A DNA stretch of 64,000 nucleotides, taken from assembly GCA_012837335.1 (NCBI GenBank), contig DURM01000008.1:2224-66223 (forward strand), given 5' to 3'. Positions 31,852 through 63,784 of this stretch are shown here, piece after piece. Origin of the DNA: Bacillota bacterium. Lineage in GTDB: Bacteria > Bacillota > Limnochordia > Darwinibacteriales > DTU012. A model generated the notes under the pieces. It was not told the origin of the DNA. It worked only from the letters and a program-made list of their open reading frames with translations, and ran no database searches. The translations under genes and the position numbers were made by a program. The number at the start of each line of letters is the position of its first letter. Within the stretch, counting starts at the first letter, position 1.

Positions 31852-33636
31852 TCAGCGGTAATTTTGGAAAAACAGCAGTACACCGTTAAGCAGACCTTCA
31901 GCTATCTTTTTCTGGTAGTCAGGATCAATCAGCAGTTTTTCTTCTTCCGGGTGACTTACAAAACCGACTTCGACTAAAACGGCAGGCATTTCAGCATTGT
32001 TTAAAACATGCAGGTCTGTCCGGGGGCGCACACCTCGATTCTTGGCATCCAAATGGTTCACCAGTTCACTCTGGACAACTTGTGCCAGGCGGAAGTTTTC
32101 AAGATAGAGAGGATTGTACAAGGTTTCAACCCCTCTGGCTGCGGTGCCCTCATAAGAATTGGCGTGGACAGAAATGAAGATTTCCGCGTTTACCATATTC
32201 GCTATTGCTACCCGATCAAAATAGGATACGTAGCGGTCATCATTTCTGGTATACACCACAATGGCACCCTGCTCTTCCAGCAGGCGTCCCAGCTCAAGGC
32301 TGATGGGCAGTACCACATCTTTCTCAAATACTCCCAATACATTCCCAATTGTGCCGGGGTCGGAGCCTCCGTGACCGGGATCAACAACTAAAATGCGGTG
32401 AGCAAGGGGCAGGCTGTCGTCAATTTTCCGATCTTCTGGAATCAACAGCTCCGGTTCTACCGGTTTCGGAGCTTCCCGCTCCAGCTTCGCCTGATACTCC
32501 TGCTCGGTTCCTTCGAATAATATGATTTCATAGCGGCCATTAATCTCTTCGACTTCAATCGGAATCATCGGTCCGTCTAAATCCAAAACCATACGGGTAA
32601 TCGATGGAGTGTTCTGGCTGATGCGCACCGACCGCAGCGGCGGATCGCCTACCTGCAGCTCTCTGGCTCCGTCCAGCAGTGTTGTGGATTGAAAATCCAG
32701 TACCAGCCGCATCGGCGAAGGCAGCATCTGAACGCTGAACATGGGCTGCTCATTGGCTTCAAACCAGATCCGAGGATTCTGCTCTTCATCTCTATAATAG
32801 CCAATATCCCTAATTTGATAATTAAATTCGATCTCTAATCCACCATCAGGCCAGCGATTAATCTCATAATCGGTAGCCCGGTTCAAATCAAACACAATTC
32901 GGATCGTGCGGTGATCAAACTGATCAGAGCGGATCCGGCGCACCAGTGTGTCATTAATCACCTGTTCCGGGAACGGACCATCCCAGCGAACACCGGTCAA
33001 ATCAATTACCATCCGATCCGGATTAGTCAGCAAAAAGCTTTCATACGCGGCAAATCCATCCAAATCAATAAAAACCCGCGATCTGGGTCCTCCCATAAAC
33101 ACAATCTTTTTCAACACCGGCGTACCAATAGTTGTGCTCTGCTCCGGATTAAGAAATTCGGGCAGATTCAAATCAGCCGGCTCTCCTTCTGCTCGAGCCC
33201 TAACCCAATCCGCCAGTTCATCTGATAAGTTTATGTAAAGAACTGCCTGCTTAGCATCAAAAGACAGCTGCAGACCTAATAAATCCACAACAAAACGAAG
33301 AGGAATCATAAACTCCCCATCGACAGCTTGGGGAGCAACATCCATAATCTGCTCTTCCCCATTCACCTTTGCTGTCGGCGAACCGATCTCCATTATAATA
33401 GTGTGGGTTGGGAATGAGATGGAAAGCTTACCTGCTTCCAAATCACTTTCCACGTCAGCAGCCATGTAGTCTCTCAGTACTGAAGCCGGAATTAGGATAT
33501 TGCCATTCACTACCTGAGATGCTGCCAGTTCTACCTTCTGCCCACCAATATAGAAGCTGAAAGCAGCATCTGCGGCAGAATTTGCTGAAAAAAACATAAT
33601 AAGGGCGATAAATATTATTAGTCCGTATTTCTGCAT
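31852..33636 (-). CDS. N-acetylmuramoyl-L-alanine amidase (Amidase_3) with a copper-amine-oxidase-like N-terminal domain and tandem AMIN-like domains
   Basis: The C-terminus carries ILVVDPGHGGSDPG...SVHANS...VLVEVGFVSHPEE. The middle has repeated xRxVxDL motifs (RVFIDLDG, RMVIDLTG, RIVFDL, RLVLDFQ, RMVLDLDG). AGGAGG lies before ATG at 33636; the tracked ORF starts at 33699. Confidence 0.85.
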   Translation of the reverse strand: MQKYGLIIFIALIMFFSANSAADAAFSFYIGGQKVELAASQVVNGNILIPASVLRDYMAADVESDLEAGKLSISFPTHTIIMEIGSPTAKVNGEEQIMDVAPQAVDGEFMIPLRFVVDLLGLQLSFDAKQAVLYINLSDELADWVRARAEGEPADLNLPEFLNPEQSTTIGTPVLKKIVFMGGPRSRVFIDLDGFAAYESFLLTNPDRMVIDLTGVRWDGPFPEQVINDTLVRRIRSDQFDHRTIRIVFDLNRATDYEINRWPDGGLEIEFNYQIRDIGYYRDEEQNPRIWFEANEQPMFSVQMLPSPMRLVLDFQSTTLLDGARELQVGDPPLRSVRISQNTPSITRMVLDLDGPMIPIEVEEINGRYEIILFEGTEQEYQAKLEREAPKPVEPELLIPEDRKIDDSLPLAHRILVVDPGHGGSDPGTIGNVLGVFEKDVVLPISLELGRLLEEQGAIVVYTRNDDRYVSYFDRVAIANMVNAEIFISVHANSYEGTAARGVETLYNPLYLENFRLAQVVQSELVNHLDAKNRGVRPRTDLHVLNNAEMPAVLVEVGFVSHPEEEKLLIDPDYQKKIAEGLLNGVLLFFQNYR

Positions 33637-33771
33637 GTTGATCCTCCTAAAAGCACGGTCAAACGATGTTTCGCTCTTGCTGATGGAAATTCCTGCCACA
33701 AAAATAATGCCCTATTACTATATGTTTTCTGCTCTCTCCGTGTCAAAGCAGTTGCAGAAAATGCTTCCACC

Positions 33772-34693: not shown

Positions 34694-34734
34694 AAAAAAA
34701 CAACCTAGCAGTTTTACCTGCTAGGTTTATTTTA
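34694..34734. terminator. Bidirectional rho-independent terminator shared by ssrA (+) and secG (-)
   Basis: ACCTAGCAG-ttttac-CTGCTAGGT forms a 9-bp perfect stem. It is flanked by an A7 run upstream and TTATTTTATT downstream. Confidence 0.8.
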
Positions 34735-35044: not shown

Positions 35045-35311
35045 TTATTCATCCCAGCGGGACTGCTGGGGATGGGGACAGGAACCGGTTCGGTACTTAG
35101 CTTTAACCTGCACAATACAGCCGCATAACATACATGTGGTTCCGTACTCAAGGTATGAGCAGTCCAGACACTTGCCTAAACGTCTGTTGTAGACTTCGTC
35201 CTCAACAGCTTGGCCGGAGCGCTCCACCTGGGCAACCATCTGCGCGATTGAATCAGGAGAGACCTCAACCGACTCACTGCAGCCTTTGCACAAATCCCGC
35301 TTCTCGTCCAT
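35045..35311 (-). CDS. Small Cys-rich protein (8 Cys in CxxC-type pairs), DUF6171-like
   Basis: 88 aa. The pattern is CKGC ...(34 aa)... CLDC ... CMLCGC ... SCPHP ... RW. I recall this as the pattern of the family labelled DUF6171, but that is unverified. The start lies 3 nt after the GH51 stop. Confidence 0.55.
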   Translation of the reverse strand: MDEKRDLCKGCSESVEVSPDSIAQMVAQVERSGQAVEDEVYNRRLGKCLDCSYLEYGTTCMLCGCIVQVKAKYRTGSCPHPQQSRWDE

Positions 35312-35313
35312 TG

Positions 35314-36789
35314 CTATTCCACCTTGAGGACTGCGACCGACATTGGCGGCAGTTTCACGCTCAGTTTGTTTTGATTCAGAACTGCCTCATCGAAAGCAGA
35401 TGGCGCAACTTTATCAGGCTCATCGAAGGTGTTGTGGTCATTCATGACATCTGCTGTCAGGATTGTTCCACTGACAAACACTGCATCCATCCCCCGCAGG
35501 TCGCAGTCAATCTCAGCAGCATTTTGCGGATCCAAATTGCAGAGGGAAATATGCAGTTGACCTTCGGCATTGCGGGACGCGGAAACAGTCACCTGTGGAA
35601 TCGATTCATTTTCAAACTGATACAGGTCGCTTTCACAGTAAACGTCCACAGCGTCCGCATCCTGGTGAACTTTATACATATCGAATACATGGTAGGTCGG
35701 GGTCTTAACTAGTTTATCGCCTTCGGTCAGCAGCACTGCCTGGAGTACGTTAACAGTCTGGGCAATGTTGGTCATCTGCACACGCTGGCAGTGTTTGTGG
35801 AAGATGTTAAAGTTAATTCCCGCTACCAGAGCATCTCTGATGGTATTCTGCTGATACAGGAAGCCTGGGTTGGTGCCCGGCTCTACATTATACCAAGTTC
35901 CCCATTCATCGATAATCAGCCCGACCCGCTTATGGGGATCATAGAAATCCATAATTGCACCGTGGCGGGTAATCAGGTCATCCATAACCATCGTTTTTTT
36001 CAGAGTCACAAACCACTCTTTGTGGTCAAAATCTGTTGCCGAACCTTTATCGCCCCATGTGCCAGGTACAGTATAATAGTGGAGACTTAAGCCATTCATC
36101 ATCCGTCCCGCTTCCCGCATCATAACTTCGGTCCAGCGGAAGTCATGGCCGTTGGCACCACAGGCGATTTTGTAGATATTATTGCCTCGATAGTTGCGGA
36201 CATAAGTCGCATAGCGCCGGTACAAGTCCGCATAGTACTCGGGGCGCATATTGCCGCCGCAGCCCCAGTTTTCATTACCAACCCCGAAATAAGGCAGTTT
36301 CCAAGGCTCGTCCCGGCCGTTTTCCCGCCGCAAGTTGGCCATCGGCGATTCGCCATCAAAGGTCATGTACTCCACCCACTGCTCCATTTCATGGACACTG
36401 CCGCTGCCTACATTACCGCAGATATATGGCTCGGCACCGATTAATTCACACAGCAGCATAAATTCATGGGTTCCAAAGTGGTTGTTTTCAACCACACCGC
36501 CCCAGTGGGTGTTGATCATCTCAGGGCGCTGATCTCTTGGACCGATGCCGTCTTTCCAGTGGTATTCATCGGCAAAACAGCCGCCAGGCCAGCGTAAAAC
36601 CGGTATCTGCAGCTGTCTTAATGCTTCAATCACATCATTGCGGATACCTTTGGTATTGGGGATGGGTGAATCCTCTCCCACCCAAATGCCTTCGTAAATA
36701 CAGCGACCCAGGTGTTCCGAAAAATGACCGTAGATGTTCCGATTGATTTTACCCCGCTTTATATCAGCATTAATAATAATTTTCGTCAT
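35314..36789 (-). CDS. abfA: Alpha-L-arabinofuranosidase, GH51, cytoplasmic
   Basis: 491 aa with no signal peptide. [23 protein letters not shown]...[20 protein letters not shown]...[11 protein letters not shown] matches the GH51 AbfA pattern. Confidence 0.9.
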
Positions 36790-36873: not shown

Positions 36874-37848
36874 TTATTCTACCAAACCAGTCCTTTCAAT
36901 ACTTTCCGTAAACCAGCGCTGGGCAATGAAATAAAGGATCAGAATTGGGAAAATCACTAAAAACGCTCCGGCCATCCGCACCGGCTCAGTCATTGTGCTC
37001 AAGCCATAAGGGTTCACATCGTAAATCTCATCAAGAGTCTGCTGCAAGCCCTGGAGTCTGCGCACCAGCGACCACATATTTTGATTCGAGACAAACATCG
37101 AAGGCAGGTAGTAATCGTTCCAGTGCCAGACAAAGGAAAACAAGCTGACTACCAGCACAGCCGGTCTTGCCAGCGGCAGCATAATTCTGGTAAAGATCGT
37201 TACTGAATTAGCCCCGTCTAAGCGAGCTGCTTCCTCTAACGACTGGGGCTGGCCCATGAAAAACTGCCGGTAGATTATGATAAATAAGCTCCCCTTCAAT
37301 CCCAATCCCAGCATTTCCGGCACAATCAGCGGATAATAAGTATTCAACCAGCCAAAATTCCGGTAAAGCAGGTATAACGGGATCACGATTGTCTGAGGCG
37401 GCACGATAAAGGTAAGGAACACCAGCAAAAACAGGATGTTTTTACCCGGAAAGTTGTAGCGGGCAAATCCGTATCCGGCAACTGCGCAGGATATAGTCTG
37501 GGCAACAGTGGCAATTGCTGCTATAAACACAGTCTGCCCCAGTCCCTGCCAGTACTCGAGTCCTTCAAATGCTTTTGCCAGGTTATCCCAATTCAGGGCT
37601 GTGGGAATCCAGCGAATGGTAGGATCTACCAGATCAAGCGTGCTCATCATCATTGTGGACAGCATGTAAAGAATTGGGTAAACATAAATAAACGCTACAT
37701 CAACAAGGAGGATGAACACAATAATCTTGTTGATCACACCGGTCTTCATGCCCCGGCCGAACAGGATTCCTCTCAGACTCAGCCACCGCGGCCTCAGCCC
37801 CTCCCGCAGCGCATCAGTTCTTTGTGCAAATGTAGGTCTGATACTCAC
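36874..37848 (-). CDS. Carbohydrate ABC transporter permease (MalG-like, CUT1)
   Basis: 6 TM helices and the EAA loop EEAARLDGANSVTIFTRIMLPLARP. GGGAGGGGAG lies before GTG at 37848. The tracked ORF start at 37902 would overlap the upstream gene by 41 nt. Confidence 0.85.
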   Translation of the reverse strand: MSIRPTFAQRTDALREGLRPRWLSLRGILFGRGMKTGVINKIIVFILLVDVAFIYVYPILYMLSTMMMSTLDLVDPTIRWIPTALNWDNLAKAFEGLEYWQGLGQTVFIAAIATVAQTISCAVAGYGFARYNFPGKNILFLLVFLTFIVPPQTIVIPLYLLYRNFGWLNTYYPLIVPEMLGLGLKGSLFIIIYRQFFMGQPQSLEEAARLDGANSVTIFTRIMLPLARPAVLVVSLFSFVWHWNDYYLPSMFVSNQNMWSLVRRLQGLQQTLDEIYDVNPYGLSTMTEPVRMAGAFLVIFPILILYFIAQRWFTESIERTGLVE

Positions 37849-37861
37849 CGCGCTCCCCTCC

Positions 37862-38725
37862 CTAGTATCTTTCCACTTTCCGCATTCCCAGAGTATAGAC
37901 AATTACTAACGCAACCAAGATCAGGGCGAAATAAATCCAACCCAATGCCGCGGCGTAGCCCATTCCTGTCCGCACGCTGAACATATGCCTGTTGATCGTG
38001 CCGAGCATTTGGTTAAATGGTGATACAGACAGCTCCACAATCGTATACACAGTAGTTAAGACTATAAACGGCCGCAGTGCTGGCAGAGTGATCTTCCAAA
38101 ATGATTCCCACCGCCCTGCTCCGTCAATAGCAGCCGCCTCGTAGACGCTGTCACTGATAGTCTTTAACGCTGCCAGAATCAGCAGAATCTGCACACCAGA
38201 GCTCCACAGCACCAGAGTAAAGCGGGACAGCACAGCGGTGACCGGTTCATTTAGTGACTCAGGCAGCGCGTTGATCAGCATGTTGAACACGTTAAACCGC
38301 GTCATAAAGCTGCCTCCGCCGGCTCCCAGATCAAAGAGCGTGGTAATTACCTGACTTGTTGAGAAGATTACCGGCAGGAAGAAAATCGCCCGGAAGATGC
38401 CTCTACCCCACACTTCCTCGTTAATTAACAGTCCGACCAAGAGTGAGAAAATCACGATAATCGGCACAGAAATCAGGGATTCCTGAACAAAAGCTGCCAG
38501 TTCCACGGGAAAAACGTTATCGCTCAGGAACGCGTAGATATAGTTATCCCAGCCGACAAAAGTGAAGTTGATGGCAGTGGCGGTTACCTGCACTTCCGTA
38601 AAACTCATATACAGGGAATAAGCCAGCGGAAAAGCCATAAACACGATAAAACCTACCAGCCACGGCAGGATGAAGGTAAATCCCTCCAGCGAACGACGAG
38701 CAGCTAAGGACAGCTTCAGTTTCAT
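37862..38725 (-). CDS. Carbohydrate ABC transporter permease (MalF-like, CUT1)
   Basis: 6 TM helices and the EAA loop YEAAAIDGAGRWESFWKITLPALRP. ATGA overlap with the upstream 729-aa gene. Confidence 0.85.
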   Translation of the reverse strand: MKLKLSLAARRSLEGFTFILPWLVGFIVFMAFPLAYSLYMSFTEVQVTATAINFTFVGWDNYIYAFLSDNVFPVELAAFVQESLISVPIIVIFSLLVGLLINEEVWGRGIFRAIFFLPVIFSTSQVITTLFDLGAGGGSFMTRFNVFNMLINALPESLNEPVTAVLSRFTLVLWSSGVQILLILAALKTISDSVYEAAAIDGAGRWESFWKITLPALRPFIVLTTVYTIVELSVSPFNQMLGTINRHMFSVRTGMGYAAALGWIYFALILVALVIVYTLGMRKVERY

Positions 38726-40911
38726 TGGATTTGTCCCTCCTTATCAAAGACGGCAAAGGAATTGCCCATCACTGTTGTGCCGCTGTAATCATAAGGGCGG
38801 GTGCCGTAATTAACCACAAAGCGGGTTCCATCTTCATACTCAGTCAGAAACACATCAGCCGCTAGCGGTCTGTGGTCGACGATAAACTGATCATGCACCT
38901 GCTGCAGCTTTAGATTAATCTTCTGGTACTGCTCCACGGTTCGATCCAGCCAATCAAGATAATAGGTACTGTACATGTCGCTGGACAGTGTGTAGCGGAG
39001 ATGCCATGACGGCTCAGCTGTCAGCACAAAGCTGGGCAGCGCGCCGTACTCAACCGCCCGCAGCAGATCTCTGGTAGGATTGATGCTGAGATTGAGATGG
39101 TCGGTATAATATGTTACCAGCCCGTGCACAGCAATTTGGTAAAAAGGTATCGACTGGTCGATAAAGGAATCCTGGGTAGTCTGCAGGGGAATATCCTGAA
39201 TGAAATCTATCGACCCGATTAAATACGCGTTACCGGTAGTAACGCCGATGGTGTCAACATACTCCCGGGTTAAATCGATCAGCTGTTTGTAAAGCAAGCG
39301 CGCATCGCGGCGTTGAATCTTCGCTTCGATGTTGGGATTGTGATCGCTGTTCAGAGCAGACCCAATGGAAAGGTGCACCAGACCGTCCACTCCATACTGG
39401 GCGATTTTGGGAATATCCCGCTCTGCATACTCCAAGCTGATCTTAGGCGAGATCAGATAGGTGGTGACGTCCGGCGCGCCAATCGCAAAGCCATAGGATG
39501 ACATCCGGATTAAGTCATTAAACGCAGTGCGGCTGGCCTGAGTAGACGGCTGAAATCCATTGTTTGAACCGCGCGCGATCGTATAATCATCGGCCAGCAG
39601 AATTCTAATGCCGCGTTCATGCAGCTGGTCAACCAGTGAGCGAAGTCCTTCTTCTCCGCCCAGTTCTTTCTCCGGTGGTAACCGCCTTGGCAGATTGCCG
39701 TGGATTCCCATCCGGTTCCAGCCTCTGAAATTGATGATTAAGTTATCAACACCACTGGCGAGCAGCTGGTCAACAACTTCAACTGCCTGCTCAAAGGTGG
39801 TAACAGGCTTGATGACCGGCCCGAAAATGTTGGTCTCATAATCGGCTCCTAACAGCTCAACCAAAAGCGGCGCCTGCCAGGTTTTTGAGTCAATGCGCTT
39901 GGCACCTTGCTCAGCGATTAAATACTCGCGGTAGGTCTGAGCCATTCCCACATAGTCCGCCTGGTCATCGGTCAAGAAGTAGAACCTAATCCGGCGATCG
40001 CCGGGAATTGGATTTTCGTCAAAAATGCGGATGCCGCCTCCCTGCCGAGATGTCCGCATGATAATGGATTGACTGTACCACAGTTCGGCAGTAATCCAGT
40101 TAAGATTAGTAATAACTCCTGCCGGAGTCGCAATTACCTTTGCGGACTCCTGACCTTCCTCAATAATGCCGAGAAATGCTTGGTCCCAAGTTTTCATCCC
40201 GAAAATGGGCATTACCACAGGCTCACGGTAGGGATCGTAAGTGGGCTCTGCCGAAGCCGGATCCAAACCGTAAATCCACTGGTTGTACCCAGTTTGGGAA
40301 AGAGACACCTGCTCCTTAAACCACACTAACCCACCGGATCCATCAGGAACAACCATATAACCAGACGGATCTGCTTCACTGGGTTGAGCTCCCAAAAACG
40401 GCAGCAGCCTCAAGGCCAGCAGCTGCAGGTCGCCATTGCCAATCTGGACCTGTTCCCAAGGCACATAGGCAGTCAGTGAGTTATCGGCGAGGGTGTATTC
40501 CACCGTAAAACCGATGCCCGTGTTTTCAAAGTAATAGCGCATGGCAAAACCATTATCGATCTCGGCATACTCAATCTGCACATCCTTTGAATAAGCGTTA
40601 GCTCCCCGCACATTGCGCCTTTTGTCGAAGTAATCTAGATAAATTGGCGACTGAAGATTGCCCTGCCACGCATCAGAAAGCCACATAAATCCATCGATTG
40701 TGCTCACATCGGGATTGGAGTACCAGACTCCCCCGGCACGATCTCGCACAATCAGCTGTCCGTCCTCAGGGCGGGCATACAGCTCAAGATATTCGTTTTG
40801 AGCAGTAAGCTGAAAATCTTCCGGTATTTCTACCGCTGCAACGCTGACACCGGCAGTTACAAATATCAGCAGGAATCCTGTCATCATGAGCATCCGTTTG
40901 CTAGAAAACAC
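38722..40911 (-). CDS. Large secreted protein of unknown function; possibly a TIM-barrel glycoside-hydrolase-like protein (DUF5696-like architecture)
   Basis: 729 aa with a signal peptide (LLIFVTAGVSVAAVE). The central region (VDNLIINFRGWNRMGIHGNLP...IRILLADDY...GVDGLVHLSIGS) alternates beta/alpha segments like a (beta/alpha)8 barrel. The family name is from memory and unverified. Confidence 0.5.
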   Translation of the reverse strand: MFSSKRMLMMTGFLLIFVTAGVSVAAVEIPEDFQLTAQNEYLELYARPEDGQLIVRDRAGGVWYSNPDVSTIDGFMWLSDAWQGNLQSPIYLDYFDKRRNVRGANAYSKDVQIEYAEIDNGFAMRYYFENTGIGFTVEYTLADNSLTAYVPWEQVQIGNGDLQLLALRLLPFLGAQPSEADPSGYMVVPDGSGGLVWFKEQVSLSQTGYNQWIYGLDPASAEPTYDPYREPVVMPIFGMKTWDQAFLGIIEEGQESAKVIATPAGVITNLNWITAELWYSQSIIMRTSRQGGGIRIFDENPIPGDRRIRFYFLTDDQADYVGMAQTYREYLIAEQGAKRIDSKTWQAPLLVELLGADYETNIFGPVIKPVTTFEQAVEVVDQLLASGVDNLIINFRGWNRMGIHGNLPRRLPPEKELGGEEGLRSLVDQLHERGIRILLADDYTIARGSNNGFQPSTQASRTAFNDLIRMSSYGFAIGAPDVTTYLISPKISLEYAERDIPKIAQYGVDGLVHLSIGSALNSDHNPNIEAKIQRRDARLLYKQLIDLTREYVDTIGVTTGNAYLIGSIDFIQDIPLQTTQDSFIDQSIPFYQIAVHGLVTYYTDHLNLSINPTRDLLRAVEYGALPSFVLTAEPSWHLRYTLSSDMYSTYYLDWLDRTVEQYQKINLKLQQVHDQFIVDHRPLAADVFLTEYEDGTRFVVNYGTRPYDYSGTTVMGNSFAVFDKEGQIQ

Positions 40912-43012
40912 GGTAGATCACCTCTTTGTAAAGACCTACAGCAAAGTCGCTGACGTTAAAGGTCATGCCAATCACTAAACCGCCGATTGCACCAATCACC
41001 ACCATCATCAGCACCGATAGGATGCAGTTGGGAATCGCTTCGAAGATCTCGTAGTTATGGATGGTGTAGACCATGACAAAGAACAGAATTGCGCTCCAAA
41101 TCACTGCCACATTCTGGAAGAAATGGTAAACAGGCGCCTCGTAGTTTGTCATCACATTGGAAATTAGGGTTAAAGGAAGCATGATGACGATATAAGGAAC
41201 GAGACAATAAGCACTGGCGATAAACACATCTTTGAATCTGCCTTCACCCTCTTTGAGCGCGCTGATTAGGTAGTGGCCGATTACCCAGATCACCCACGGC
41301 AGAATGAACGTCATGGCTTCAATGCCGAGATTAATGCGATTGCGGTCAATGCTCATAAAGATTAGGTTGGTATAGTAAAGGGAAAAGAGCTTGGTGGCAA
41401 ATGCCAGCAGCACAATGACGCAGGCAGATAACCACGATCCTTTATTGGACCAGCGCACATCATAAAAGCCTTCCGAGGGATGGAAAATAACCGTCTTGGC
41501 GTGCATTAAATCGCCTAATAGACGGTTAACCCGATACCAATCCCGCTTTTGTCTGGGGCGGTGGCGCAGGTACACGCGATTAACAATCTGATAAACAACC
41601 CAAACTGCTGCTAAAATAATCAGGACCTTGTCAAAGTGGTTCAGAAGCCAAGCTCGCCTTGCCCACCAAAATGCATCGGAGTAACCATCAGCGTACTGGG
41701 CGAGATAAAAATGGTCCATGGCTGTCTCAAACTCCTCATTTTGATAGGCTGCCATGCCCAATCCGCGGTGCGCAAAGTCAAAGTTGGAATTGCGCCGCAG
41801 TACTTCTTCCCAGTATTTAGCACTGTCATCGTATCTGCCGTCTTCAAACAAATAAACCGCTTCATGAACTAACTGGGCGAATTCCGTCGGTTTAAAGACA
41901 TGCAGGGTATTGCTGCGGGAATCGGATACGATGATCAGACCATCGGAGCGGATCGCCAGCCCCGCTGCCTGGTTGATCAAACCCATTCTCTCAATCGCAG
42001 CAATACTGCGGCCGCCAAAAACAAACAGCTTATCTCCGTTTGGGGTATATTGGAAAATCTGCCCGGTATTAGCATCCACTGCCGTAATAATGCCTTTCGG
42101 ATCTACAGCTACAGCATTAAACATGGAAACGCCGGTGCGGAAATAGGGTGCGCCATAATCTCTTTCCGGCAGGGTGTTGATGCCGCCGAGGTTAAAGCGC
42201 TTGACCTGAGCATGACTAGTCGAGATCGTAGCAGTGTAGATCTGCCCGCGCTGATCAATCGTTACAAAGCTGGGAGAACCGGGCAGGCGCCGTTTTTCCC
42301 GTCCTAACTGTTCTTCAGTAAAGAAGATCTGCTTTAAGACCCACATTAAGTCAAAACCGGCCTGATTGCCGCCGATAAAACCAAGAAACTCACCAGATTC
42401 TGACAGCTGCACTAAGCCCCGATAGCCGCCCTCGGTAACGATAAACAGTGAGCCGCGGTGATCCACTACCAGCGATACCGGGGCAAACCGGTAATCCACG
42501 CCAAAGATCTGGGAATCTGGTCTGCCGTACGCCTGCATGAACTCACCGGTAGGGCTGAATACAGCCACCCGGCTGTTGCCGGTATCCGCCACAAAGATGC
42601 GGCCATCCTCATGCACAAATACACCCTGCGGCCGCGACAGGCGTCCCTGGCCGGAACTATCCCCGATCGAGCGCAAATAATTAAACTCATCATCATACTC
42701 GACGATGCGGTTATTGCCTGCATCCGCGATGTAGAGATGGTTCTTGCTGTCTACTGCTAAGCCCTGCGGCTGACTGAAGGGCACTATTGCATAGCCTGAT
42801 ATTGACCAGGGATCCTCCAAGCGGATATCAAACCCATCCAGCATGAGAATCGGTTCATAGGGGGCCGGAGACACAACCGGCTGGCCCCAGGCATCAAAAC
42901 TGAAACTGGGGTACGGAACGGCAGCTGAGATCGGCACTTTCAGCCCAACAATCACCAGACCGATAATCACTAAACTAACTGATAACCTGTAAAATCGCTG
43001 CACCGAATCCAC
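40901..43012 (-). CDS. Membrane protein with an extracytoplasmic NHL-repeat beta-propeller, a TPR-like linker and a C-terminal Yip1-type 5-TM domain
   Basis: 703 aa. NHL-like blades include LYIADAGNNRIVEYD, IFVADTGNSRVAVFS, IITAVDANTGQIFQY and LIIVSDSRSNTLHVF. The C-terminal 230 aa form 5 TM helices like Yip1/DUF1282. An alternative GTG start at 43003 has a better Shine-Dalgarno (GAGGTGG). Confidence 0.65.
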   Translation of the reverse strand: MDSVQRFYRLSVSLVIIGLVIVGLKVPISAAVPYPSFSFDAWGQPVVSPAPYEPILMLDGFDIRLEDPWSISGYAIVPFSQPQGLAVDSKNHLYIADAGNNRIVEYDDEFNYLRSIGDSSGQGRLSRPQGVFVHEDGRIFVADTGNSRVAVFSPTGEFMQAYGRPDSQIFGVDYRFAPVSLVVDHRGSLFIVTEGGYRGLVQLSESGEFLGFIGGNQAGFDLMWVLKQIFFTEEQLGREKRRLPGSPSFVTIDQRGQIYTATISTSHAQVKRFNLGGINTLPERDYGAPYFRTGVSMFNAVAVDPKGIITAVDANTGQIFQYTPNGDKLFVFGGRSIAAIERMGLINQAAGLAIRSDGLIIVSDSRSNTLHVFKPTEFAQLVHEAVYLFEDGRYDDSAKYWEEVLRRNSNFDFAHRGLGMAAYQNEEFETAMDHFYLAQYADGYSDAFWWARRAWLLNHFDKVLIILAAVWVVYQIVNRVYLRHRPRQKRDWYRVNRLLGDLMHAKTVIFHPSEGFYDVRWSNKGSWLSACVIVLLAFATKLFSLYYTNLIFMSIDRNRINLGIEAMTFILPWVIWVIGHYLISALKEGEGRFKDVFIASAYCLVPYIVIMLPLTLISNVMTNYEAPVYHFFQNVAVIWSAILFFVMVYTIHNYEIFEAIPNCILSVLMMVVIGAIGGLVIGMTFNVSDFAVGLYKEVIYRVF

Positions 43013-43013
43013 C

Positions 43014-43871
43014 TCACTTCAGGCCCGAATGTGCCATAGTTTGAATTACTCGGTTCTGCATGACCAGGAAGAAGATCAAGTTTGGCAGAAACATCAGCAA
43101 ACCTGCGGCAGCCGCTGCTCCCTGTCCGGCCACATTGTTAGCTAGACCGGAAGTGAGGGTGCCGAGGAAAAACGGCAGCGTCCGCATGGCTTCGTTTTCA
43201 ATATAATAAATCGATGGCTCCATGGTATTCCACGCTGATTGAAAAGTCAGCAGCGCGATTGTGCTCACTGCCGGACGGCAGATCGGATAAATAATCCGAA
43301 ACAGGATATGCCACTCTGACGCACCGTCGATTCTGGCGGCAGCCAGCAGATCTTCGGGTACCTGATCCACAAACTGCTTAAACAAAAACACACTCACGGG
43401 CGCTGCTACCAGCGGCAGGATATGGGCCAAGTATGTATCAATAATTCCCAGACGCTGCACAATGATGTAACGGGGAATGATCACTGCCTGAGGAGCAAAC
43501 ATCAAGGCCATAATGGTCATATTGAGAATCGCGTTTTTGCCGAGAAAATTATGTTTAGATAGGGCAAATGCTACCATCGTGCTGAAAGCAACTACTACAA
43601 TCACCGTTGCCGCAGCCGAAAATACACTGTTAAACAGATACCTAACTACCGGTACCACCGCAGCATCTACCGAAGTCAGCAGCTGAGAAAAGTTGTCCAG
43701 CGTAGGATTCATCACATAAAAGCGGGGTGGATAAAGAAATAATTCGCTTAAAGGCTTAAACGCCTGCATGAAGATGAACACAATCGGCAGCAGCATAAAA
43801 ACAGCTAGAAAACTTAAGAACAGCGTCAGGATAATTTGGGTTAAGTCCATCTTAAAGAGCCGAAAGCGCAT
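43014..43871 (-). CDS. Carbohydrate ABC transporter permease (MalG-like, CUT1)
   Basis: 6 TM helices and the EAA loop LAAARIDGASEWHILFRIIYPICRP. AAGGAGGGGG lies upstream within the end of the preceding gene. Confidence 0.85.
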   Translation of the reverse strand: MRFRLFKMDLTQIILTLFLSFLAVFMLLPIVFIFMQAFKPLSELFLYPPRFYVMNPTLDNFSQLLTSVDAAVVPVVRYLFNSVFSAAATVIVVVAFSTMVAFALSKHNFLGKNAILNMTIMALMFAPQAVIIPRYIIVQRLGIIDTYLAHILPLVAAPVSVFLFKQFVDQVPEDLLAAARIDGASEWHILFRIIYPICRPAVSTIALLTFQSAWNTMEPSIYYIENEAMRTLPFFLGTLTSGLANNVAGQGAAAAAGLLMFLPNLIFFLVMQNRVIQTMAHSGLK

Positions 43872-43874
43872 CGA

Positions 43875-44849
43875 TTATTCCCCCTCCTTTGGCCCAAAAA
43901 GTGCCCACGCAAGCTTGCTGGATATATAAACAATAATCAGCAGAACTACGGAAATTGCCGCGGCATAACCCATTTCGAAGCGCTGGAAAGCAAAGTCATC
44001 GATATGGTTGAGAATCAGCTGACCCGCGTAGTTGGGAGTTGGGTTTTGACCAGACAGAGTCACCCCGATTGCCCCCGCTTGGAGAGTGTTGACAATTGAC
44101 ATCACTGCTCCAAACAGCATCTGCGGTTTAACCGATGGAATTGTGATGTAAAAGATCTCCTGAGCCCGATTTTTAATTCCGTCGATCCGAGCTGCTTCAT
44201 ACAGCTGGGGATCAACATTTAGAATACCGGCCATCATTGCCAAGAAACCTACTCCCATACTGCTCCACAGTGTGACGATAATCATAACAGGCATCAGCCA
44301 CTGCTCACTGTGGAGCCAGTTAATCGGTTCGGTAATAACTCCCAGCCCCAGCAAAAAGCTGTTCAGATAGCCAACCCGGTCTCCGCTGAACAAAACCAGC
44401 CAAATGGCTGACATGGCCACCGCGGCTGCCATCGAAGGGGTGTACAGAGCTAAGCTATAGACGGTCCGCATCCGCTGGGGCAGCTGGGCAATCAGCCAGG
44501 CTAACAGAAACGACAGCAGATATCCGCCCGGACCCACAATTATGGCAAACGTAAAGGTATTGGGCAGGACATGGGTCATAAATACATCATCTTCAGTAAA
44601 AAGATAGATATAGTTGAGCAGCCCTACAAACCGAGGTGTTTCAATCATATTGTAAAAGGTAAAGGAAAGCCCGATCGCTCCTAAAACCGGCAGGAGAATG
44701 AAAATCGTAAAGCAGATTACATATGGGGCAACCATGACATAGGATACCCGGTCCTGCCAGAGGCGCCGGCCGAAGCTCCTAAGCCTTGCTCCGAGCCCCG
44801 GTGAAGTAGGCCGCAGCGCCCGCTCATATGCCGGAGTTTGAGATTTCAT
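43875..44849 (-). CDS. Carbohydrate ABC transporter permease (MalF-like, CUT1)
   Basis: 6 TM helices and the EAA loop [26 protein letters not shown]. The ATG directly abuts the TAG of the 967-aa SBP gene. Confidence 0.85.
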
Positions 44850-47753
44850 CTATTGACCCTCCTTTTCCCAATCCCAAGGCTCATTAACCACTGGAATACT
44901 AAACTCTACTACTCGTTCGCCCTCTTCGTTAATTAAACCAAACTCAAGCTGTTTGCGGAGCAGTTCGCGGCGGACATTCCGGTCTGCTTCATGCAGAGCC
45001 AGCCGCGTATTTTGGGCTCCTGACGCAGTGCCGATTACCACGCGGTTCCAAGCAAAGGACAGCTCCCGCTCGAGAATGTAGCCGCCTGGTACTTGGGGAA
45101 CGTCTTTGAGCCAGCGCCACTGTTCTTTAATCGTCTCTAATTCTTCTAAGGTCCAGGGAATCTGAGTAATAGCTGCTAAGTTGGCCGTATTCCAGCGATA
45201 AGCCACACTGAACATGGCTTCCACTTCGTTGCCGAAGCGAGCCTGTACTTCTGCTGAAGTCCACCACTTAATCCATTCCCAAGCTTCTTCTTTATGATCA
45301 CTTAATTCAAACATAATAATCGACTGCATCGCCCCGGGTGCCCAGCGGACAGTTTCGCCATCATCTTTCTTAACTCCAGGCATGGGCGCAATGCCCCACA
45401 GCTCCCGCAACTCAGGAGCAGCAGCTTTCAGCTGGACAAAAGTGTTGTAATCCGAGACACCAAGCGGTATATCTCCCGAGCGGAAGTTCTGGAAAAACCA
45501 TGCTACGAAGTTATCTAAGGCATAAACCGTATATAGATCGGTTAAACGCCTGAAGCCGGTGAGGGCTTCGGGAGTTAACAGACTTGTGCGCAGTCCATCA
45601 GGTGAGTAAAGCTCAGCATCCGCTTGATAGAAAAATGGCGCCATAACATTTAAGGCTTTGATACCGGTACCGGCTGAAACCGGAATGTAGAAATTCATGC
45701 CCATCTGCTGAAGCAGCGGCAAGAGTTCAACAACGTCATCCCAGGTATCCGGAAGCTCGATGCCCAATTCCTCAACAATGTCTTTGCGATAAAACAAGAC
45801 CCAGAAATTTTGGGTTTCGGGCATGGCGTAAACGCCATCTAAATAGTGATAGGACAAGAATGCGCCGGGATGGAAGCGAGCAGCCACCTCGTCAAAATCC
45901 GGAAACTGCGTTAAATCAACCAGCGCACCCCGGCTCGCTAAGTTAAACGGTGTAGTATACCAGACACTCGCCGCCAAATCCGGGGGAGTTCCATTGGAAT
46001 TAGCCAAAATCAATTGGTCTTCTCGAGGCATTAAGCTGAACGCCACTTTGATGCCGGTTTGGGGTGTAAACCACTGATCGGTAAGCTGCTGCATCACCGA
46101 GACGAAGTCTCGTCCCCGGCCGACCCAAATCTCTAAGGTATCTTCATCGCCTAAGCCAACAGCATTATAATTTTTAAAGAATGACTGGACAAAGTTTTTA
46201 ATCGTGACCCAGGTCCGCGCTGCAAAGCTCGATTTGCCCGGCGGCAGCGGATGCCCCGGTGATGTAATGAAGATTTTATCGATCTGCAGCGGTTCATCCT
46301 GAAGCGATAGAATCACGTTGCCAATCACTTCCGAAATCGAACCCGAATCAACTGATAGCTGAGTATAGCGAAGCGGCAGCATTTCCGGCTCTTCTGCTAG
46401 AGCTTCCAGCTGTTCCGCGCTGACAATTAGGTTGGCTGCAGCATCAGGAGCTCTGCCGGTAATGGCTTTTAATCTCTGATACTCTGCTCTAAGCCGCGCT
46501 GCGCTGTCTAAAATCCGATCAATTGCATCCGGTATCTGCTTATCCAAATCCCAATCCCGATACCGATCCGGGTTGCGGCCGGTGGCCATGGCGATACTGA
46601 TGGATAAGTCCCGCAGATCGGAGATTACATCTAAAATAGTATTGATTGTCGGCTGAACAACCTGATTAATCGCAGTTAAGCGCAGTTTGTGCGTTCCTTT
46701 GGTGAGGTAAAAGAGCATCGGCTCACCATCAGCAGCTTCAAAGAAAGTTGACTGCCAGTTTTGATCATAATGAAATGAATACAGCAGCAGTTCTGGTGCG
46801 GGGACTTGATCATCGATTTCGATTTTGCGGTAGGTAGGCATGTTATGCTTAAAGTTCTGGGCAAATCGAAGCCCGATCTGGTAATAGCCATCTTCTGGCA
46901 CAGTAAATTCCCACTCTGCCCACTCACCGGCAGCGTGCCAGTATAAAGTATTATAAATCGTGACACCATCTTCACGGGGAGTAACCAAGGGATCACCACT
47001 GGCGTTTACCATTACCGATGAGTGAGATTTGGAAAGCGGATTCTCGGCCTCGATTTCCAGCTTCCATTCTTTAACGGCCTTCAAATCAAGCTGGGGTTTT
47101 TGATACTCGGTCACCACCTGCGGAGGAACTAAAGCAATGCTTTTTAGAATCACGTGGGAGCGGAGTCCATGTATTCGAATTGTATGAGTGCCTTGAGAAA
47201 AATACCACTTAAAAGGTTCCACGTACTTGCCGTTAATATCGCTAAGTCTCATGGAACGCATGGTAAAAATCTGCTCTTGGAAGGCCCGTCTTTCATTATT
47301 AAAATCATCCCGCTCAAAGGGATAAACGCTGTTGCGCCACTGGCGATCCAGGGCAGTGCGGCGCGCTTCTCGAAATGGATATTCACCATTTATCTCGATG
47401 CCAATCTCAATGTTAAACATCTGGCTGCCGAGAGGCATATACTCCACCATAATATTATATAAGCCGGGTTGGTCTACAAATATTTGGTACTCAACCCAGC
47501 CGTCATCAGCCTGCCAATACAGCAAATCATCTTCTGTCCTGAATTTAGCCGGATCAGAAACTTCATTATAATAAACAGCAGGTATAATTATTCCAGTCTG
47601 GTTTAAAGGAATCTGCTGGATACCTTGGTCAATCAAATTTACAAGATAATCTCCATAGGTCGGCTCACTGAAAATACTGCTTGCAGCAGCAGAGCCGGCT
47701 AAGATTATTAGTATTAATATCAGTGCAGAGACGATTTTCCAAGACTTCTGCAT
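44850..47753 (-). CDS. Giant extracellular solute-binding protein: a roughly 480-aa N-terminal extension with two CBM-like modules, fused to a family-1 SBP domain
   Basis: 967 aa with a signal peptide that lacks Cys. An internal duplication is visible: LYWQADDGWVEYQIFVDQPGLYNIMVEY...FSQGTHTIRIHGL versus LYWHAAGEWAEWEFTVPEDGYYQIGLRF...LTKGTHKLRLTAI. The C-terminal roughly 450 aa look like SBP_bac_1. Confidence 0.7.
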   Translation of the reverse strand: MQKSWKIVSALILILIILAGSAAASSIFSEPTYGDYLVNLIDQGIQQIPLNQTGIIIPAVYYNEVSDPAKFRTEDDLLYWQADDGWVEYQIFVDQPGLYNIMVEYMPLGSQMFNIEIGIEINGEYPFREARRTALDRQWRNSVYPFERDDFNNERRAFQEQIFTMRSMRLSDINGKYVEPFKWYFSQGTHTIRIHGLRSHVILKSIALVPPQVVTEYQKPQLDLKAVKEWKLEIEAENPLSKSHSSVMVNASGDPLVTPREDGVTIYNTLYWHAAGEWAEWEFTVPEDGYYQIGLRFAQNFKHNMPTYRKIEIDDQVPAPELLLYSFHYDQNWQSTFFEAADGEPMLFYLTKGTHKLRLTAINQVVQPTINTILDVISDLRDLSISIAMATGRNPDRYRDWDLDKQIPDAIDRILDSAARLRAEYQRLKAITGRAPDAAANLIVSAEQLEALAEEPEMLPLRYTQLSVDSGSISEVIGNVILSLQDEPLQIDKIFITSPGHPLPPGKSSFAARTWVTIKNFVQSFFKNYNAVGLGDEDTLEIWVGRGRDFVSVMQQLTDQWFTPQTGIKVAFSLMPREDQLILANSNGTPPDLAASVWYTTPFNLASRGALVDLTQFPDFDEVAARFHPGAFLSYHYLDGVYAMPETQNFWVLFYRKDIVEELGIELPDTWDDVVELLPLLQQMGMNFYIPVSAGTGIKALNVMAPFFYQADAELYSPDGLRTSLLTPEALTGFRRLTDLYTVYALDNFVAWFFQNFRSGDIPLGVSDYNTFVQLKAAAPELRELWGIAPMPGVKKDDGETVRWAPGAMQSIIMFELSDHKEEAWEWIKWWTSAEVQARFGNEVEAMFSVAYRWNTANLAAITQIPWTLEELETIKEQWRWLKDVPQVPGGYILERELSFAWNRVVIGTASGAQNTRLALHEADRNVRRELLRKQLEFGLINEEGERVVEFSIPVVNEPWDWEKEGQ

Positions 47754-47831: not shown

Positions 47832-49190
47832 TTATTTACCAAGTGCTGCATCAAGCTTAGCGTTGTTAGCTGCCCACGCTTCTTCAAGATATTTGTTTGC
47901 CTGCTCTACAGCTGCTGGCATAACATCCTCAAACGCAGCAGCGCCAAGTCTCAGCTGATCGCGTGCAGGTGTGATAAAGTTGTCCCAGACATAGCCCAAT
48001 TCCGGAACATAGCGGTTCGGATCAACCACGCCGCCATCCAGAGTTGCATGGACATTGCGCATGCCTGCCGGAACGTTTTCATTTCCGAAGTAAAGATCCC
48101 AAGCTTCAGGCGCATCGATGGTCGGCATACTGTAAGGAACAGGAACTTCTGCCTGCATTCTCGCTGCCCAGCCGTCTTGATCGTAGCTCATCCAGCGCAG
48201 GAAGGTGAATGCTTCTTCCGGATGCTTGGTGGTTGGAGAAATACCCATATGGTCTACGATCAGAGGAGTTGCTTGACGGGCAGGACCATGTGGATAAGGA
48301 ATGATATCCCACTCAGATTCATAGTTCTCTGTCCACCAGGAGAAGGACCAGCTCCAACCTACGTGGAACGCAGCCTTATTCTGCATCCAAGGCGAAACGT
48401 TGCCGTATGCGTCAACAAACGCCGGGTGATCCCATGGAGTCAGAATTGAACCATCAGCTAATCCAATGCTTACTGCTGCATTTTCTCTTTCCCAGCGGAT
48501 TGCAGTCTTGAGGGCTTCAATTACATTTGGGTCATCCATCATTAAGCGGGTACCATCAACACGCAGAGCATCCCAGGTAGTGCCGTCAAGATATGCCGGC
48601 GGCATAAATGCCCAGAACATCCACGGATCTTCCATGCCGTAGTAGTTTTGAGCCGGACGGTTCATTCTCTGGCAGAATGCCCACAGATCATCCCAAGTCC
48701 AGGACGGATCCGGCAGGCGCATGCCAAAGTAATTCAGAACATCGAGATTCGCCACGAGGAAGCTTGCCTGCAGTTGGAACGGCAGACCGAAATAGCGGTC
48801 TTTAAACTGCATTGGTTCAAGAGAGTTACCCCAGAACAGATCCGGATCAAAAGTTGGATCATTTTCCAAAAAGTCGGTAATATCGGCTACCCATTGATTA
48901 TAAACATACATGTTGTTGTCCATAATCCACAGGACGTCCGGAAGTGTACCGGCAGCAGCTAAAGCGGTAATCCGATCATTAAATTGTCCCGCTTCAACAT
49001 ACTCATAAGTAACGATAATGTTTGGATACATCTCCATAAACGCATCCAGGCGAGGCTCCTGCGGCTGGTCGCCGGGCCACGCCCAACCCATATACCACAG
49101 CTCAACAACATCGTCCTGAGCAACGACAAAACCGGACAAGCTGAACAGTAAAGATAATGCAAGCACTAAGCACACTACAGCTTTTCTCAT
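47832..49190 (-). CDS. Carbohydrate ABC transporter solute-binding protein (family 1)
   Basis: 452 aa with a cleavable-type signal peptide (SLSGFVVAQDD) and no lipobox Cys. The overall pattern is SBP_bac_1-like. Confidence 0.85.
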   Translation of the reverse strand: MRKAVVCLVLALSLLFSLSGFVVAQDDVVELWYMGWAWPGDQPQEPRLDAFMEMYPNIIVTYEYVEAGQFNDRITALAAAGTLPDVLWIMDNNMYVYNQWVADITDFLENDPTFDPDLFWGNSLEPMQFKDRYFGLPFQLQASFLVANLDVLNYFGMRLPDPSWTWDDLWAFCQRMNRPAQNYYGMEDPWMFWAFMPPAYLDGTTWDALRVDGTRLMMDDPNVIEALKTAIRWERENAAVSIGLADGSILTPWDHPAFVDAYGNVSPWMQNKAAFHVGWSWSFSWWTENYESEWDIIPYPHGPARQATPLIVDHMGISPTTKHPEEAFTFLRWMSYDQDGWAARMQAEVPVPYSMPTIDAPEAWDLYFGNENVPAGMRNVHATLDGGVVDPNRYVPELGYVWDNFITPARDQLRLGAAAFEDVMPAAVEQANKYLEEAWAANNAKLDAALGK

Positions 49191-49265: not shown

Positions 49266-50255
49266 TTAGGTTGAAGCTCTTTCAACCAGTTTAGGTGATA
49301 AAATCATTTGCTCAGGCTTGGCAGTTGGCTCCCGCAGCTTTCTGAGAAGAATTTCTGCGCTTAAAATCCCCATCTCCTGGTTTTGGATATCAATGGAGGT
49401 CAGCGGCGGATCCGTGATTTCAGTAATCAGCAGATTATCCACGCCCATTACCGCTATATCATCGGGTACCTTAAGACCCCTTTCTTTGATTCCGTGAAGT
49501 ATTTCAAGCGCCATATAATCACAGAAACAGAAAACTGCGCTGGGTTCCAACCCCTGCTCCAGAGCTTCAAACAACTTATACTTTGCATCAGTGTGGAAAG
49601 GTACTGATTTAATCCACTTCGGGTCGAGTTTAATCCCCAGTTCCTTCATTCTGGCCGCAAAACCTCGCGCCCGTAACTGCGCGCTGTAGTTAAGCGATGA
49701 GTTGATGAACAGAATCCGCTCATGTCCTTTAGCAGTTAAATGCTCAGCTGCCATTGCCCCTATTTGATAGTCATCACAGACCACATAGCTGGTATCGATT
49801 CCGGGAATTGTTCTGCCCACCAGAACGAAAGGAAGATTATTCTTTTGCAGCCTTTCAACAACTTCCGGTTTGCTCTGGACGGGAGCTAAGATCAAGCCAT
49901 CCACCCGCTGTTCCAGAAGTACAGTTATGGCTCCCGATTCCTGCTGGATATCTTCATAGGAGCTGCACAGCAGAATATTATAGCCCTGTTCCTTTAAGAC
50001 TTTTTCAATTCCGGAAACAACGTTGGCATAAAATGGGTTCTCGATTGTAGTAATGATTACTCCGATTACTCTGGTTTCTCCCGACCAGAGCCCCTTGGCC
50101 AAAGAACTGGGCACATAGCCGATCTGCTCTGCAACCTGCAGCACTCTCGCCCGAGTTTCCGGATTAACCTCCCCCCGGTTATTAATTGCTCTTGAAGCTG
50201 TCGCTAGCGAAACTCCGCTCAGCCTGGCCACGTCTTTTAGTGTAGCTGGTGCCAT
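49266..50255 (-). CDS. LacI family transcriptional regulator
   Basis: 329 aa. N-terminal HTH ATLKDVARLSGVSLATASRAINN followed by a periplasmic-binding-protein-like sugar-binding core. Confidence 0.92.
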   Translation of the reverse strand: MAPATLKDVARLSGVSLATASRAINNRGEVNPETRARVLQVAEQIGYVPSSLAKGLWSGETRVIGVIITTIENPFYANVVSGIEKVLKEQGYNILLCSSYEDIQQESGAITVLLEQRVDGLILAPVQSKPEVVERLQKNNLPFVLVGRTIPGIDTSYVVCDDYQIGAMAAEHLTAKGHERILFINSSLNYSAQLRARGFAARMKELGIKLDPKWIKSVPFHTDAKYKLFEALEQGLEPSAVFCFCDYMALEILHGIKERGLKVPDDIAVMGVDNLLITEITDPPLTSIDIQNQEMGILSAEILLRKLREPTAKPEQMILSPKLVERAST

Positions 50256-50384: not shown

Positions 50385-50422
50385 ACTAAAAAAGACTACC
50401 GCTGCAGGAGCGATAGTCTTTT
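50385..50422 (-). terminator. Rho-independent terminator of the glycolytic operon (after eno)
   Basis: Minus strand reads AAAAGACUA-u-CGCU-ccugc-AGCG-g-UAGUCUUUU, followed by UUAGUUUACUUUUUUU. Confidence 0.75.
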
Positions 50423-50434
50423 CATAATTGAAGT

Positions 50435-62403: not shown

Positions 62404-63060
<657 letters not shown>

Positions 63061-63061
63061 T

Positions 63062-63784
63062 ATGGGCATACTTAAAGTCAGGGATCTGCACAAAAAGTTT
63101 AAGGACTTGCACGTTTTAAAGGGAATTACAACCGATATTAAGCAGGGGGAAGTTGTCGTTGTGATTGGTCCTTCCGGCAGCGGCAAGAGTACTTTTCTGC
63201 GCTGCTTAAACTTCTTGGAAGAGCCGACCAGCGGTGAAATCTATTTTGAGGACAATCTGATTACCCCTGAAAACTTAAATCTAGTGCGGCGGGAAATGGG
63301 TATGGTGTTTCAGCGCTTTAATCTCTTTCCCCATATGAAAGTTATTGACAACATCACCCTCGCTCCCAAAAAGGTCCGCAAGATTGAGGAACAAGAGGCA
63401 TCAGCACAGGCTTATGAGCTGTTAGAAAAAGTGGGATTAAGCGATAAAGCTGATGCCTATCCAGACCAGCTCTCCGGCGGCCAGCAGCAGCGGGTAGCCA
63501 TCGCTCGTGCCCTTGCCATGAAGCCGAAAGTGATGCTCTTTGATGAGCCAACCTCCGCCCTTGATCCGGAGATGATTGGCGAGGTTTTGGATGTCATGAA
63601 GGAACTGGCCAAGGAGGGGATGACCATGGTGGTGGTTACCCACGAAATGGGCTTTGCCCGTGAAGTGGGCGATCGGGTCATTTTCATCGATGATGGCCTC
63701 TTGGTGGAAGAGAATACGCCCCATGAGCTGTTCAGCAGCCCTCAGCATCCCCGCACCCAGAGTTTCTTAAGTAAAATACTTTAA
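63062..63784 (+). CDS. Polar amino acid ABC transporter ATP-binding protein
   Basis: Walker [10 protein letters not shown], signature [15 protein letters not shown] and Walker [15 protein letters not shown] at 63062 lies right after the permease stop; the tracked start is 63050. Confidence 0.93.

Follow-up and report, generated by a model that had tools for sequence, protein, structure and literature searches.

The 64,000-nucleotide stretch of a Bacillota genome analysed here (GenBank assembly GCA_012837335.1, contig DURM01000008.1; hereafter the window) carries on its minus strand a gene (40901..43012) whose product combines an NHL beta-propeller, a TPR-like helical segment and a Yip1 membrane domain. 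This protein, which we call the target, is encoded within a cassette of seven genes in the order giant substrate-binding protein (SBP), two permeases (A and B), NHL-TPR-Yip1 protein, DUF5696 protein and two more permeases (C and D). The target is strictly co-inherited with these six partners. With about even confidence, we propose that it is a dedicated membrane-embedded accessory or organiser subunit of a conserved glycan importer, an ATP-binding cassette (ABC) system of the CUT1 type with two translocons. The original prediction for this gene had placed it inside an ABC importer operon, which is borne out by the neighbouring sugar SBPs and permeases, but it had pictured a single importer. 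The unit in fact has two translocons, and its giant SBP is not lipidated. It had also left unremarked the DUF5696 protein, which is an equally invariant partner of the target.

Strong evidence comes from the gene context. A survey of one genome per species gave 80 loci, and their six-frame open reading frames (ORFs) were then searched with the window proteins. All seven core genes were found in every one of the 55 loci with a true homologue and sufficient flanking sequence, and in 54 of them the order was the same, so that the conservation of the neighbourhood, on which the original prediction could have failed, speaks strongly for it. The exception is locus L049, in which permeases C and D are shifted upstream; in both L049 and L061 (Ruminococcaceae/Oscillospiraceae) these two genes lie upstream of the giant SBP. 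Fifteen incomplete loci were cut by contig ends, save one unclear case (L029), and a further group (L070-L080) consisted of unrelated NHL proteins without the cassette. Carriers belong mainly to the Bacilli (Paenibacillus, Cohnella, Bacillus, Lederbergia and Alkalibacterium) and the Clostridia (Ruminiclostridium, Roseburia, Acetatifactor, Lachnospiraceae, Ruminococcus and Oscillospiraceae), and one metagenome-assembled genome (MAG) of the Chloroflexota contains the full cassette outside these two classes. Two further MAGs, one of the Thermotogota and one of the Anaerolineales, hold truncated or degraded fragments. The Thermotogota locus (L060, 151-6831) has overlapping broken ORFs and an NHL/Yip1 split site unlike that of all other loci, and is perhaps a degenerating copy or an artefact of assembly.

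The reciprocal test gave the same picture. Of the DUF5696 homologues, three divergent ones with 23-27% identity, among them the remotest that was recovered, were all located within the cassette, adjoining genes for NHL/TPR/Yip1 proteins of 673-691 aa. The conserved gene order spans several bacterial phyla at protein identities of 25-35%. With the TPR-TM-Yip1 part (TM, transmembrane) as query we obtained 356 clusters (at 50% identity) with E<=1e-30 and 1223 with E<=1e-10, and most of the matches listed are 660-730 aa long. Judged from these sequences, a tie between the target and the transporter is strongly supported by gene context.

The target ORF has 703 aa when read from the first GTG. A second GTG at 43003 gives a protein of 700 aa and has a GAGGTG Shine-Dalgarno (SD) sequence 6 nt upstream; because of this SD placement and of a database twin of the same length (P0001, 700 aa), the latter is probably the true start. 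The gene had been described as starting 1 nt past the stop of the upstream permease, a distance that becomes a gap of 10 nt after permease B when counted from the GTG at 43003. The overlap of 11 nt described originally was confirmed: it is shared by the 3' end of the target and the downstream DUF5696 gene, the GTG of which has its own SD. Both of the main domains originally recognised were recovered by Pfam well above the cutoffs, NHL (PF01436) with E=3.6e-25 and 87 bits (cutoff 20) and Yip1 (PF04893) with E=7.3e-14 and 52.4 bits (cutoff 28.6) at aa 507-673, a match that extends over profile positions 2-169 of 173. DUF1282, named as an alternative type for the membrane domain, was not among the Pfam matches of the target. 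The TPR profiles matched at aa 383-444 under their gathering scores (TPR_16, 29.0 bits against 32.7, E=1.4e-6; TPR_2, 22.6 against 27). Database entries of the family are labelled "YIP1 family protein" or "hypothetical", and NCBIfam has no curated family for either the target or the DUF5696 protein. In the longer family members (740-912 aa) Pfam finds no additional domain types besides propeller, TPR and Yip1.

An AlphaFold model of the target, built from 67 full-length homologues, reached a predicted local distance difference test score (pLDDT) of 91.3 and a predicted TM-score (pTM) of 0.80 and agrees with this three-part architecture. The N-terminal helix (aa 1-30, 42923..43012) is followed by six four-stranded blades (aa 37-375, 41888..42904), one more than the minimum of five blades read originally, with a helical insert at aa 222-240 that holds a conserved FTEEQ motif. 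The propeller fold is well supported by comparison, since the best Foldseek matches are the NHL domains of Thin, TRIM71, TRIM2 and Brat (TM-score about 0.8) and phmmer matches to NHL propellers go down to E=1e-38. Next come two helical hairpins (aa 377-438 in the model; feature aa 377-440, 41693..41884), which the model presents as TPR-like in shape only, and a 44-residue helix (aa 441-484, 41561..41692) containing a transmembrane segment, TM2, at about aa 460-480. After a loop (aa 485-526, 41435..41560) with short cytoplasmic helices (aa 492-521) and a conserved HPxxGFY motif, the protein ends in the Yip1 domain (aa 527-703, 40904..41434), modelled as five long TM helices between aa 527 and 702. 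The hydropathy peaks (aa 527-545, 560-586, 596-614, 628-649 and 663-681) coincide with this bundle. The five-TM Yip1 bundle of the original prediction therefore stands, but the additional helix (TM2) upstream of it, seen in both hydropathy and model, had been overlooked.

The segment ahead of the bundle (aa 481-526) is rich in Lys and Arg, with 11 such residues within aa 478-530, and by hydropathy and the positive-inside rule this loop is located inside while the propeller and the TPR hairpins are outside. The N terminus had been taken for a signal anchor. Among 13 homologues whose N termini were read, most have a small-x-small (AxA-type) motif one to three residues ahead of a conserved P-Y, the usual pattern being A-x-A followed by EVPY (ISA|AVPY in the window protein, where pLDDT dips at aa 27-30). 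Since the motif just precedes the conserved P-Y in most of them, the segment is probably a cleavable Sec signal peptide. The best-conserved stretch of the family, exceeding the whole propeller and the TM bundle, comprises the TPR hairpins and a juxtamembrane motif (GYSDAFWW, aa ~443-450) in the first turns of the TM2 helix. Conservation of this kind is more in keeping with a constant protein partner than with a variable glycan. Another motif, GEGRFKD, is conserved in a loop of the Yip1 domain that is predicted to be cytoplasmic. Within the propeller, the invariant residues are those of the structural NHL motif (ADxGNxR, G, P), and the homologue alignments contain no conserved His/Glu/Asn metal-site set.

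A way to see whether the two halves of the protein belong together is provided by the loci in which they are encoded separately. NHL-TPR-TM and Yip1 are fused in 31 loci and are separate ORFs in 33 (n=64), and the split always falls within the cytoplasmic loop (query aa ~470-509). At all 18 split junctions examined the halves are adjacent genes, clearly translationally coupled in 17 of them. In 17 of the 18, translation of the Yip1 ORF can begin at a start codon of its own close by, mostly an ATG behind a GGAGG-type SD, and this ORF overlaps or abuts the upstream stop (ATGA, TAATG). The split halves match Pfam separately. Own starts, SDs and stop overlaps make these real genes rather than sequencing errors. 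The alternation of fusion and fission indicates that the two halves work together. The fusion itself, which had been the centre of the original prediction, is thus present in many loci but incidental and not obligatory.

Among the partners, the giant SBP (967 aa, 44850..47753, minus strand like the rest of the unit) has a signal peptide or anchor without lipobox. Its C-terminal 400 aa (aa ~535-930) are a CUT1-type sugar-binding domain; for the N-terminal ~500 aa we found no confident family or PDB match and only a faint GH115_C-like hint. By pattern, a lipobox Cys is present in about 9 of 56 giant SBPs (~950 aa), the remainder having a plain signal peptide or TM anchor, and in 35 of the 37 ordinary SBPs (~470 aa) of the same loci, of which the other two read TTAC and TGAC. 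In five loci from Eubacteriales MAGs (L022, L024, L028, L052 and L055) the giant SBP has about 1,000-1,300 aa and the DUF5696 protein about 1,100-1,700 aa, and these enlarged versions must hold additional domains. The four permeases of the window are A (MalF-type, 43875..44849), B (MalG-type, 43014..43871), C (MalF-type, 37862..38725) and D (MalG-type, 36874..37902, the true start of which is probably downstream of the listed TTG). EAA loops are readable in all four, and the Pfam matches include SBP_bac_1 and BPD_transp_1. The two pairs, A/B and C/D, are only 25-28% identical to each other. In sequence terms the cassette is a CUT1 ABC carbohydrate importer with a doubled translocon.

The DUF5696 protein (729 aa, 38722..40911) consists of an N-terminal hydrophobic helix and a GH129-like three-domain ectodomain. 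Its relationship to this glycoside hydrolase (GH) family is remote in sequence (phmmer match to the GH129 enzyme NagBb at E=3e-9, with an identity of only about 15%) and much clearer in structure: the confident model (pLDDT 89.3, pTM 0.91) can be superposed along its entire length on structures of GH129 (Foldseek E=1e-33 to 1e-36, TM-score 0.65-0.75), with GH101, GH36 and GH31 as the next matches. At the position aligned to D435 of NagBb, which we take to be its catalytic nucleophile (numbering from the printed alignment), the DUF5696 protein has a Ser. Nearby conserved acids (D523, D585 and E621) might take the place of the missing nucleophile.

As to the energising component, loci of Paenibacillus, Cohnella, Bacillus, Lederbergia and Ruminiclostridium hungatei have an ABC ATPase gene (~370 aa) immediately 5' of the cassette; Pfam ABC_tran was confirmed for one cluster representative, and the typing as MsmX-like is by length only. 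In the R. hungatei locus (L010, 2784-5064) two ABC ATPase genes (~375 aa) stand in tandem at this upstream position, and each translocon may have one of them. The only ABC ATPase gene of the window (63050-63784) was considered for the cassette and rejected, as it is part of an amino-acid-type transporter.

Comparison with known systems helps to place the cassette. Like the CUT1 importers of Firmicutes (MalEFGK2/MsmEFGK-type), it combines an SBP of family 1 with permeases that are MalF/MalG-type and possess EAA loops, and many Bacilli operons include an ABC ATPase of ~370 aa. Unlike them, it always links two permease pairs, its giant SBP (~950 aa) has a ~500-aa N-terminal module and usually no lipid anchor, and two further invariant parts, the NHL-TPR-Yip1 and DUF5696 proteins, are present. 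The propeller shares fold and repeat motif with the NHL domains of TRIM71/Brat/Thin and of the PknD sensor, but these are cytoplasmic RNA- or protein-binding modules or a kinase sensor, and none of them is linked to a transporter or fused to Yip1. The Yip1/YIPF proteins of eukaryotes have the same five-TM bundle behind a cytoplasmic N-terminal segment, in keeping with the above-threshold Pfam match of the target, but they act in ER-Golgi trafficking with Rab GTPases and the setting of the target has nothing comparable. The DUF5696 protein matches the full-length three-domain structure of GH129 (NagBb, ZgGH129) but differs, apart from the low identity and the Ser already mentioned, in being membrane-tethered or secreted and in belonging to a transporter cassette.

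For the membrane domain the closest precedent is YknW. The original prediction knew of no established role for bacterial Yip1 proteins, but YknW has one as an accessory of an ABC transporter. According to two secondary papers (PMC4887032, PMC4338810), YknW of the Bacillus subtilis YknWXYZ system is a Yip1-family protein that modulates assembly of the transporter complex. No other bacterial member of the family is known to have been characterised. Like the target, it is a polytopic Yip1-family protein encoded in an operon with an ABC transporter. The differences are that YknW works with a MacB-type exporter and a membrane-fusion protein, the target being associated with BPD_transp_1 permeases and family-1 SBPs (an importer), and that YknW has no extracytoplasmic domain. 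The two were compared by description.

Taken together, these observations suggest an arrangement in which the physical contacts, the tethering role and the propeller ligand are what we infer. After cleavage of the signal peptide, the NHL propeller and the TPR stalk would be exposed on the outer face of the membrane, held by a single TM helix and then by the five-TM Yip1 bundle. The propeller and the TPR/juxtamembrane region would act as a docking platform above the permeases for the extracytoplasmic proteins of the cassette, that is, the giant SBP (usually without lipid anchor) and/or the GH129-like DUF5696 protein. The Yip1 bundle would make lateral contact with one of the permease dimers or with both, similar to the modulation of YknXYZ assembly by YknW.

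Several points weigh against this organiser role. Some giant SBPs seem to be TM-anchored or lipidated, so that tethering cannot be the sole role of the target, and the calls of signal peptides and lipoboxes are our own heuristics rather than those of a trained predictor. The analogy with YknW is loose, given its exporter partner and missing ectodomain. The cassette has no ATPase gene of its own within the 64 kb of the window, a situation that would fit a shared ATPase such as is known for MsmX in B. subtilis. Finally, the synteny fits equally well with a partner of the DUF5696 protein only or with an enzyme of the same pathway. The former would be a surface glycan-processing complex in which the target, for example, holds or activates the DUF5696 enzyme and makes no contact with the permeases, a common pathway being all that their co-localisation would indicate. 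We consider this unlikely, in spite of the constant adjacency of the two genes (overlapping in the window), the complete GH129-like fold of the DUF5696 model, and loci L049 and L061, in which permeases C and D have moved away while the run of SBP, permease A, permease B and NHL/Yip1 is kept, with DUF5696 still 3' of this run in L049 (the L061 contig ends before it). Permeases A and B are equally invariant neighbours on the upstream side, and a five-TM Yip1 bundle with predicted cytoplasmic motifs (HPxxGFY, GEGRFKD) exceeds the needs of a simple anchor. In addition, the DUF5696 protein, with a Ser at the nucleophile position and conserved acids nearby, may or may not be a competent enzyme.

Another reading, that the propeller itself is a lactonase-, lyase- or esterase-like enzyme modifying the glycan before import, with the membrane part as a mere anchor, appears quite unlikely. 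It could be read from a partial Pfam match to SGL (SMP-30/gluconolactonase; 33.4 bits against a cutoff of 26.3), weak Phytase-like matches in homologues, weak PDB matches to peptidylglycine amidating lyase and JGI names such as "sugar lactone lactonase YvrE". The SGL match is limited to two blades, which is typical of repeat cross-matching; the top structural matches are non-enzymatic NHL domains; the conserved residues are structural, as described above; and the propeller is kept while the enzymes of the locus change by lineage. We regard as very unlikely that the target is a sensor, with the propeller binding an extracellular ligand, as has been proposed for the NHL domain of PknD, and the membrane domain regulating the transporter or signalling to neighbouring regulators. 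This sensor domain of PknD does occur in the list of sequence matches, and a response regulator and histidine kinase are directly downstream of the cassette in five loci (Cohnella, Paenibacillus, Bacillus, Lederbergia), with LacI in others, but the type of regulator varies or is missing while the cassette is constant, and the protein has no cytoplasmic output domain, only a ~40-aa loop. That the gene is an operon passenger without functional link to the transporter is scarcely credible in view of an order kept over several phyla at such low identities and of the tight coupling of start and stop codons.

Returning to the organiser reading, it can be extended, tentatively and with considerable doubt, to a more general scheme. 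The constant cassette, accompanied by lineage-variable enzymes, looks like a substrate-independent uptake core, and it might represent a general engine for glycan capture and import, found mainly in Bacillota, as a functional counterpart of SusC/SusD, the core of the polysaccharide utilisation loci of Bacteroidota. The target would then be the membrane hub that assembles the giant SBP, the GH129-like protein and the two ABC translocons into a supercomplex for large oligosaccharides, and enzymes specific to each lineage (GH51, GH26/GH130, GH16/GH3) would be accommodated around it. In the textbook picture, a type I ABC importer has five parts, namely one SBP, a pair of transmembrane domains and a pair of ATPase domains. 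An invariant pair of extra components together with a doubled translocon would amount to a new architectural class among them, and bacterial Yip1 domains would gain a second, general role. The cassette could also explain how non-anchored binding proteins and enzymes are retained at the membrane and how complex plant glycans are taken up. The cassette is shared by hundreds of sequence clusters, with carriers that include Roseburia, Lachnospiraceae and Ruminococcus of the human gut as well as soil Paenibacillus, and would be a simple genomic marker for the glycan-uptake loci of Bacillota, which are much harder to recognise than those of Bacteroidota.

An importer of the CUT1 type in which the translocon is doubled and two additional components are invariant is probably undescribed. 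Our literature searches found no paper on the cassette, those on Yip1 and ABC transporters or polysaccharide utilisation being unrelated by title or abstract, and no paper mentioning DUF5696 or PF18952. None of the words accessory, NHL, DUF and propeller occurs in a review on the glycoside transporters of bacteria published in 2026.

In the window, the complete minus-strand unit reads LacI, 452-aa SBP, 967-aa SBP, permeases A and B, target, DUF5696, permeases C and D and GH51. The first gene (49266..50255) encodes a probable LacI-type repressor, identified by sequence and by matches to LacI-family genes beside other cassettes. The 452-aa protein (47832..49190) is an ordinary sugar SBP (Pfam), which from locus comparison we presume to be the partner of one of the permease pairs, and the last gene (35314..36789) is a GH51 alpha-L-arabinofuranosidase (Pfam) that forms the variable enzyme cargo here. 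A hairpin search revealed a strong bidirectional terminator-like hairpin closing the unit (34702..34727) and a counterpart upstream of LacI (50389-50423).

The genes around the cassette differ between lineages. GH51 flanks the window cassette and Roseburia/Acetatifactor-type loci; GH26-CBM35 (CBM, carbohydrate-binding module), GH130, CBM65, DUF624 and a GDSL esterase flank many Lachnospiraceae/Oscillospiraceae and some Paenibacillus loci; and GH16 with GH3 was seen in two metagenomic loci. The DUF624 small membrane proteins flanking several cassettes were checked as possible relatives of Yip1 and rejected (hhalign probability 0.5%). Flanks in Paenibacillus carry either a response regulator and histidine kinase or an aldo-keto reductase and luciferase-like monooxygenases. 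To the latter type belong L003, L007, L009 and L030 (Paenibacillus/Bacillus sp. FJAT-28004), with no GH genes in the flanks. In these loci the gene for the aldo-keto reductase precedes the cassette, and SBPs together with two to three genes for luciferase-like monooxygenases follow it, a content that hints at a non-standard or oxidised substrate. An ordinary SBP (~470 aa) is found within the sampled flanks of 33 loci, usually directly 3' of permease D. In 11 loci of the Lachnospiraceae/Oscillospiraceae type (L027, L042, L043, L045-L048, L053, L058, L059 and L067) a protein of ~500-890 aa comes right after permease D; the sole representative of this position that was scanned has three CBM65 modules, and DUF624 is often nearby.

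In the region 34742-57360 of the window, the sugar locus lies between a conserved glycolytic operon (cggR-gap-pgk-tpi-pgm-eno) and secG, with smpB just beyond (plus strand), and looks like an insertion into a housekeeping backbone. Pfam supports the identities of cggR, gap, pgk, tpi, secG and smpB, those of pgm and eno being read from sequence. A small DUF6171 ORF (35045-35311) is located between GH51 and secG. Farther away, an ORF of 725 aa (22279-24456), to which no Pfam family matched at E<=1e-4, and a gene for a GT4 glycosyltransferase (24450-25562) overlap at the end of the latter. The window also encodes a cell-wall amidase with AMIN and copper-amine-oxidase-N1 domains (31852-33699), and the lipobox Cys is absent from all three extracytoplasmic cassette proteins and from the 452-aa SBP. 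The amidase and the missing lipoboxes may point to a source organism with a periplasm-like compartment, that is, a diderm Bacillota lineage.

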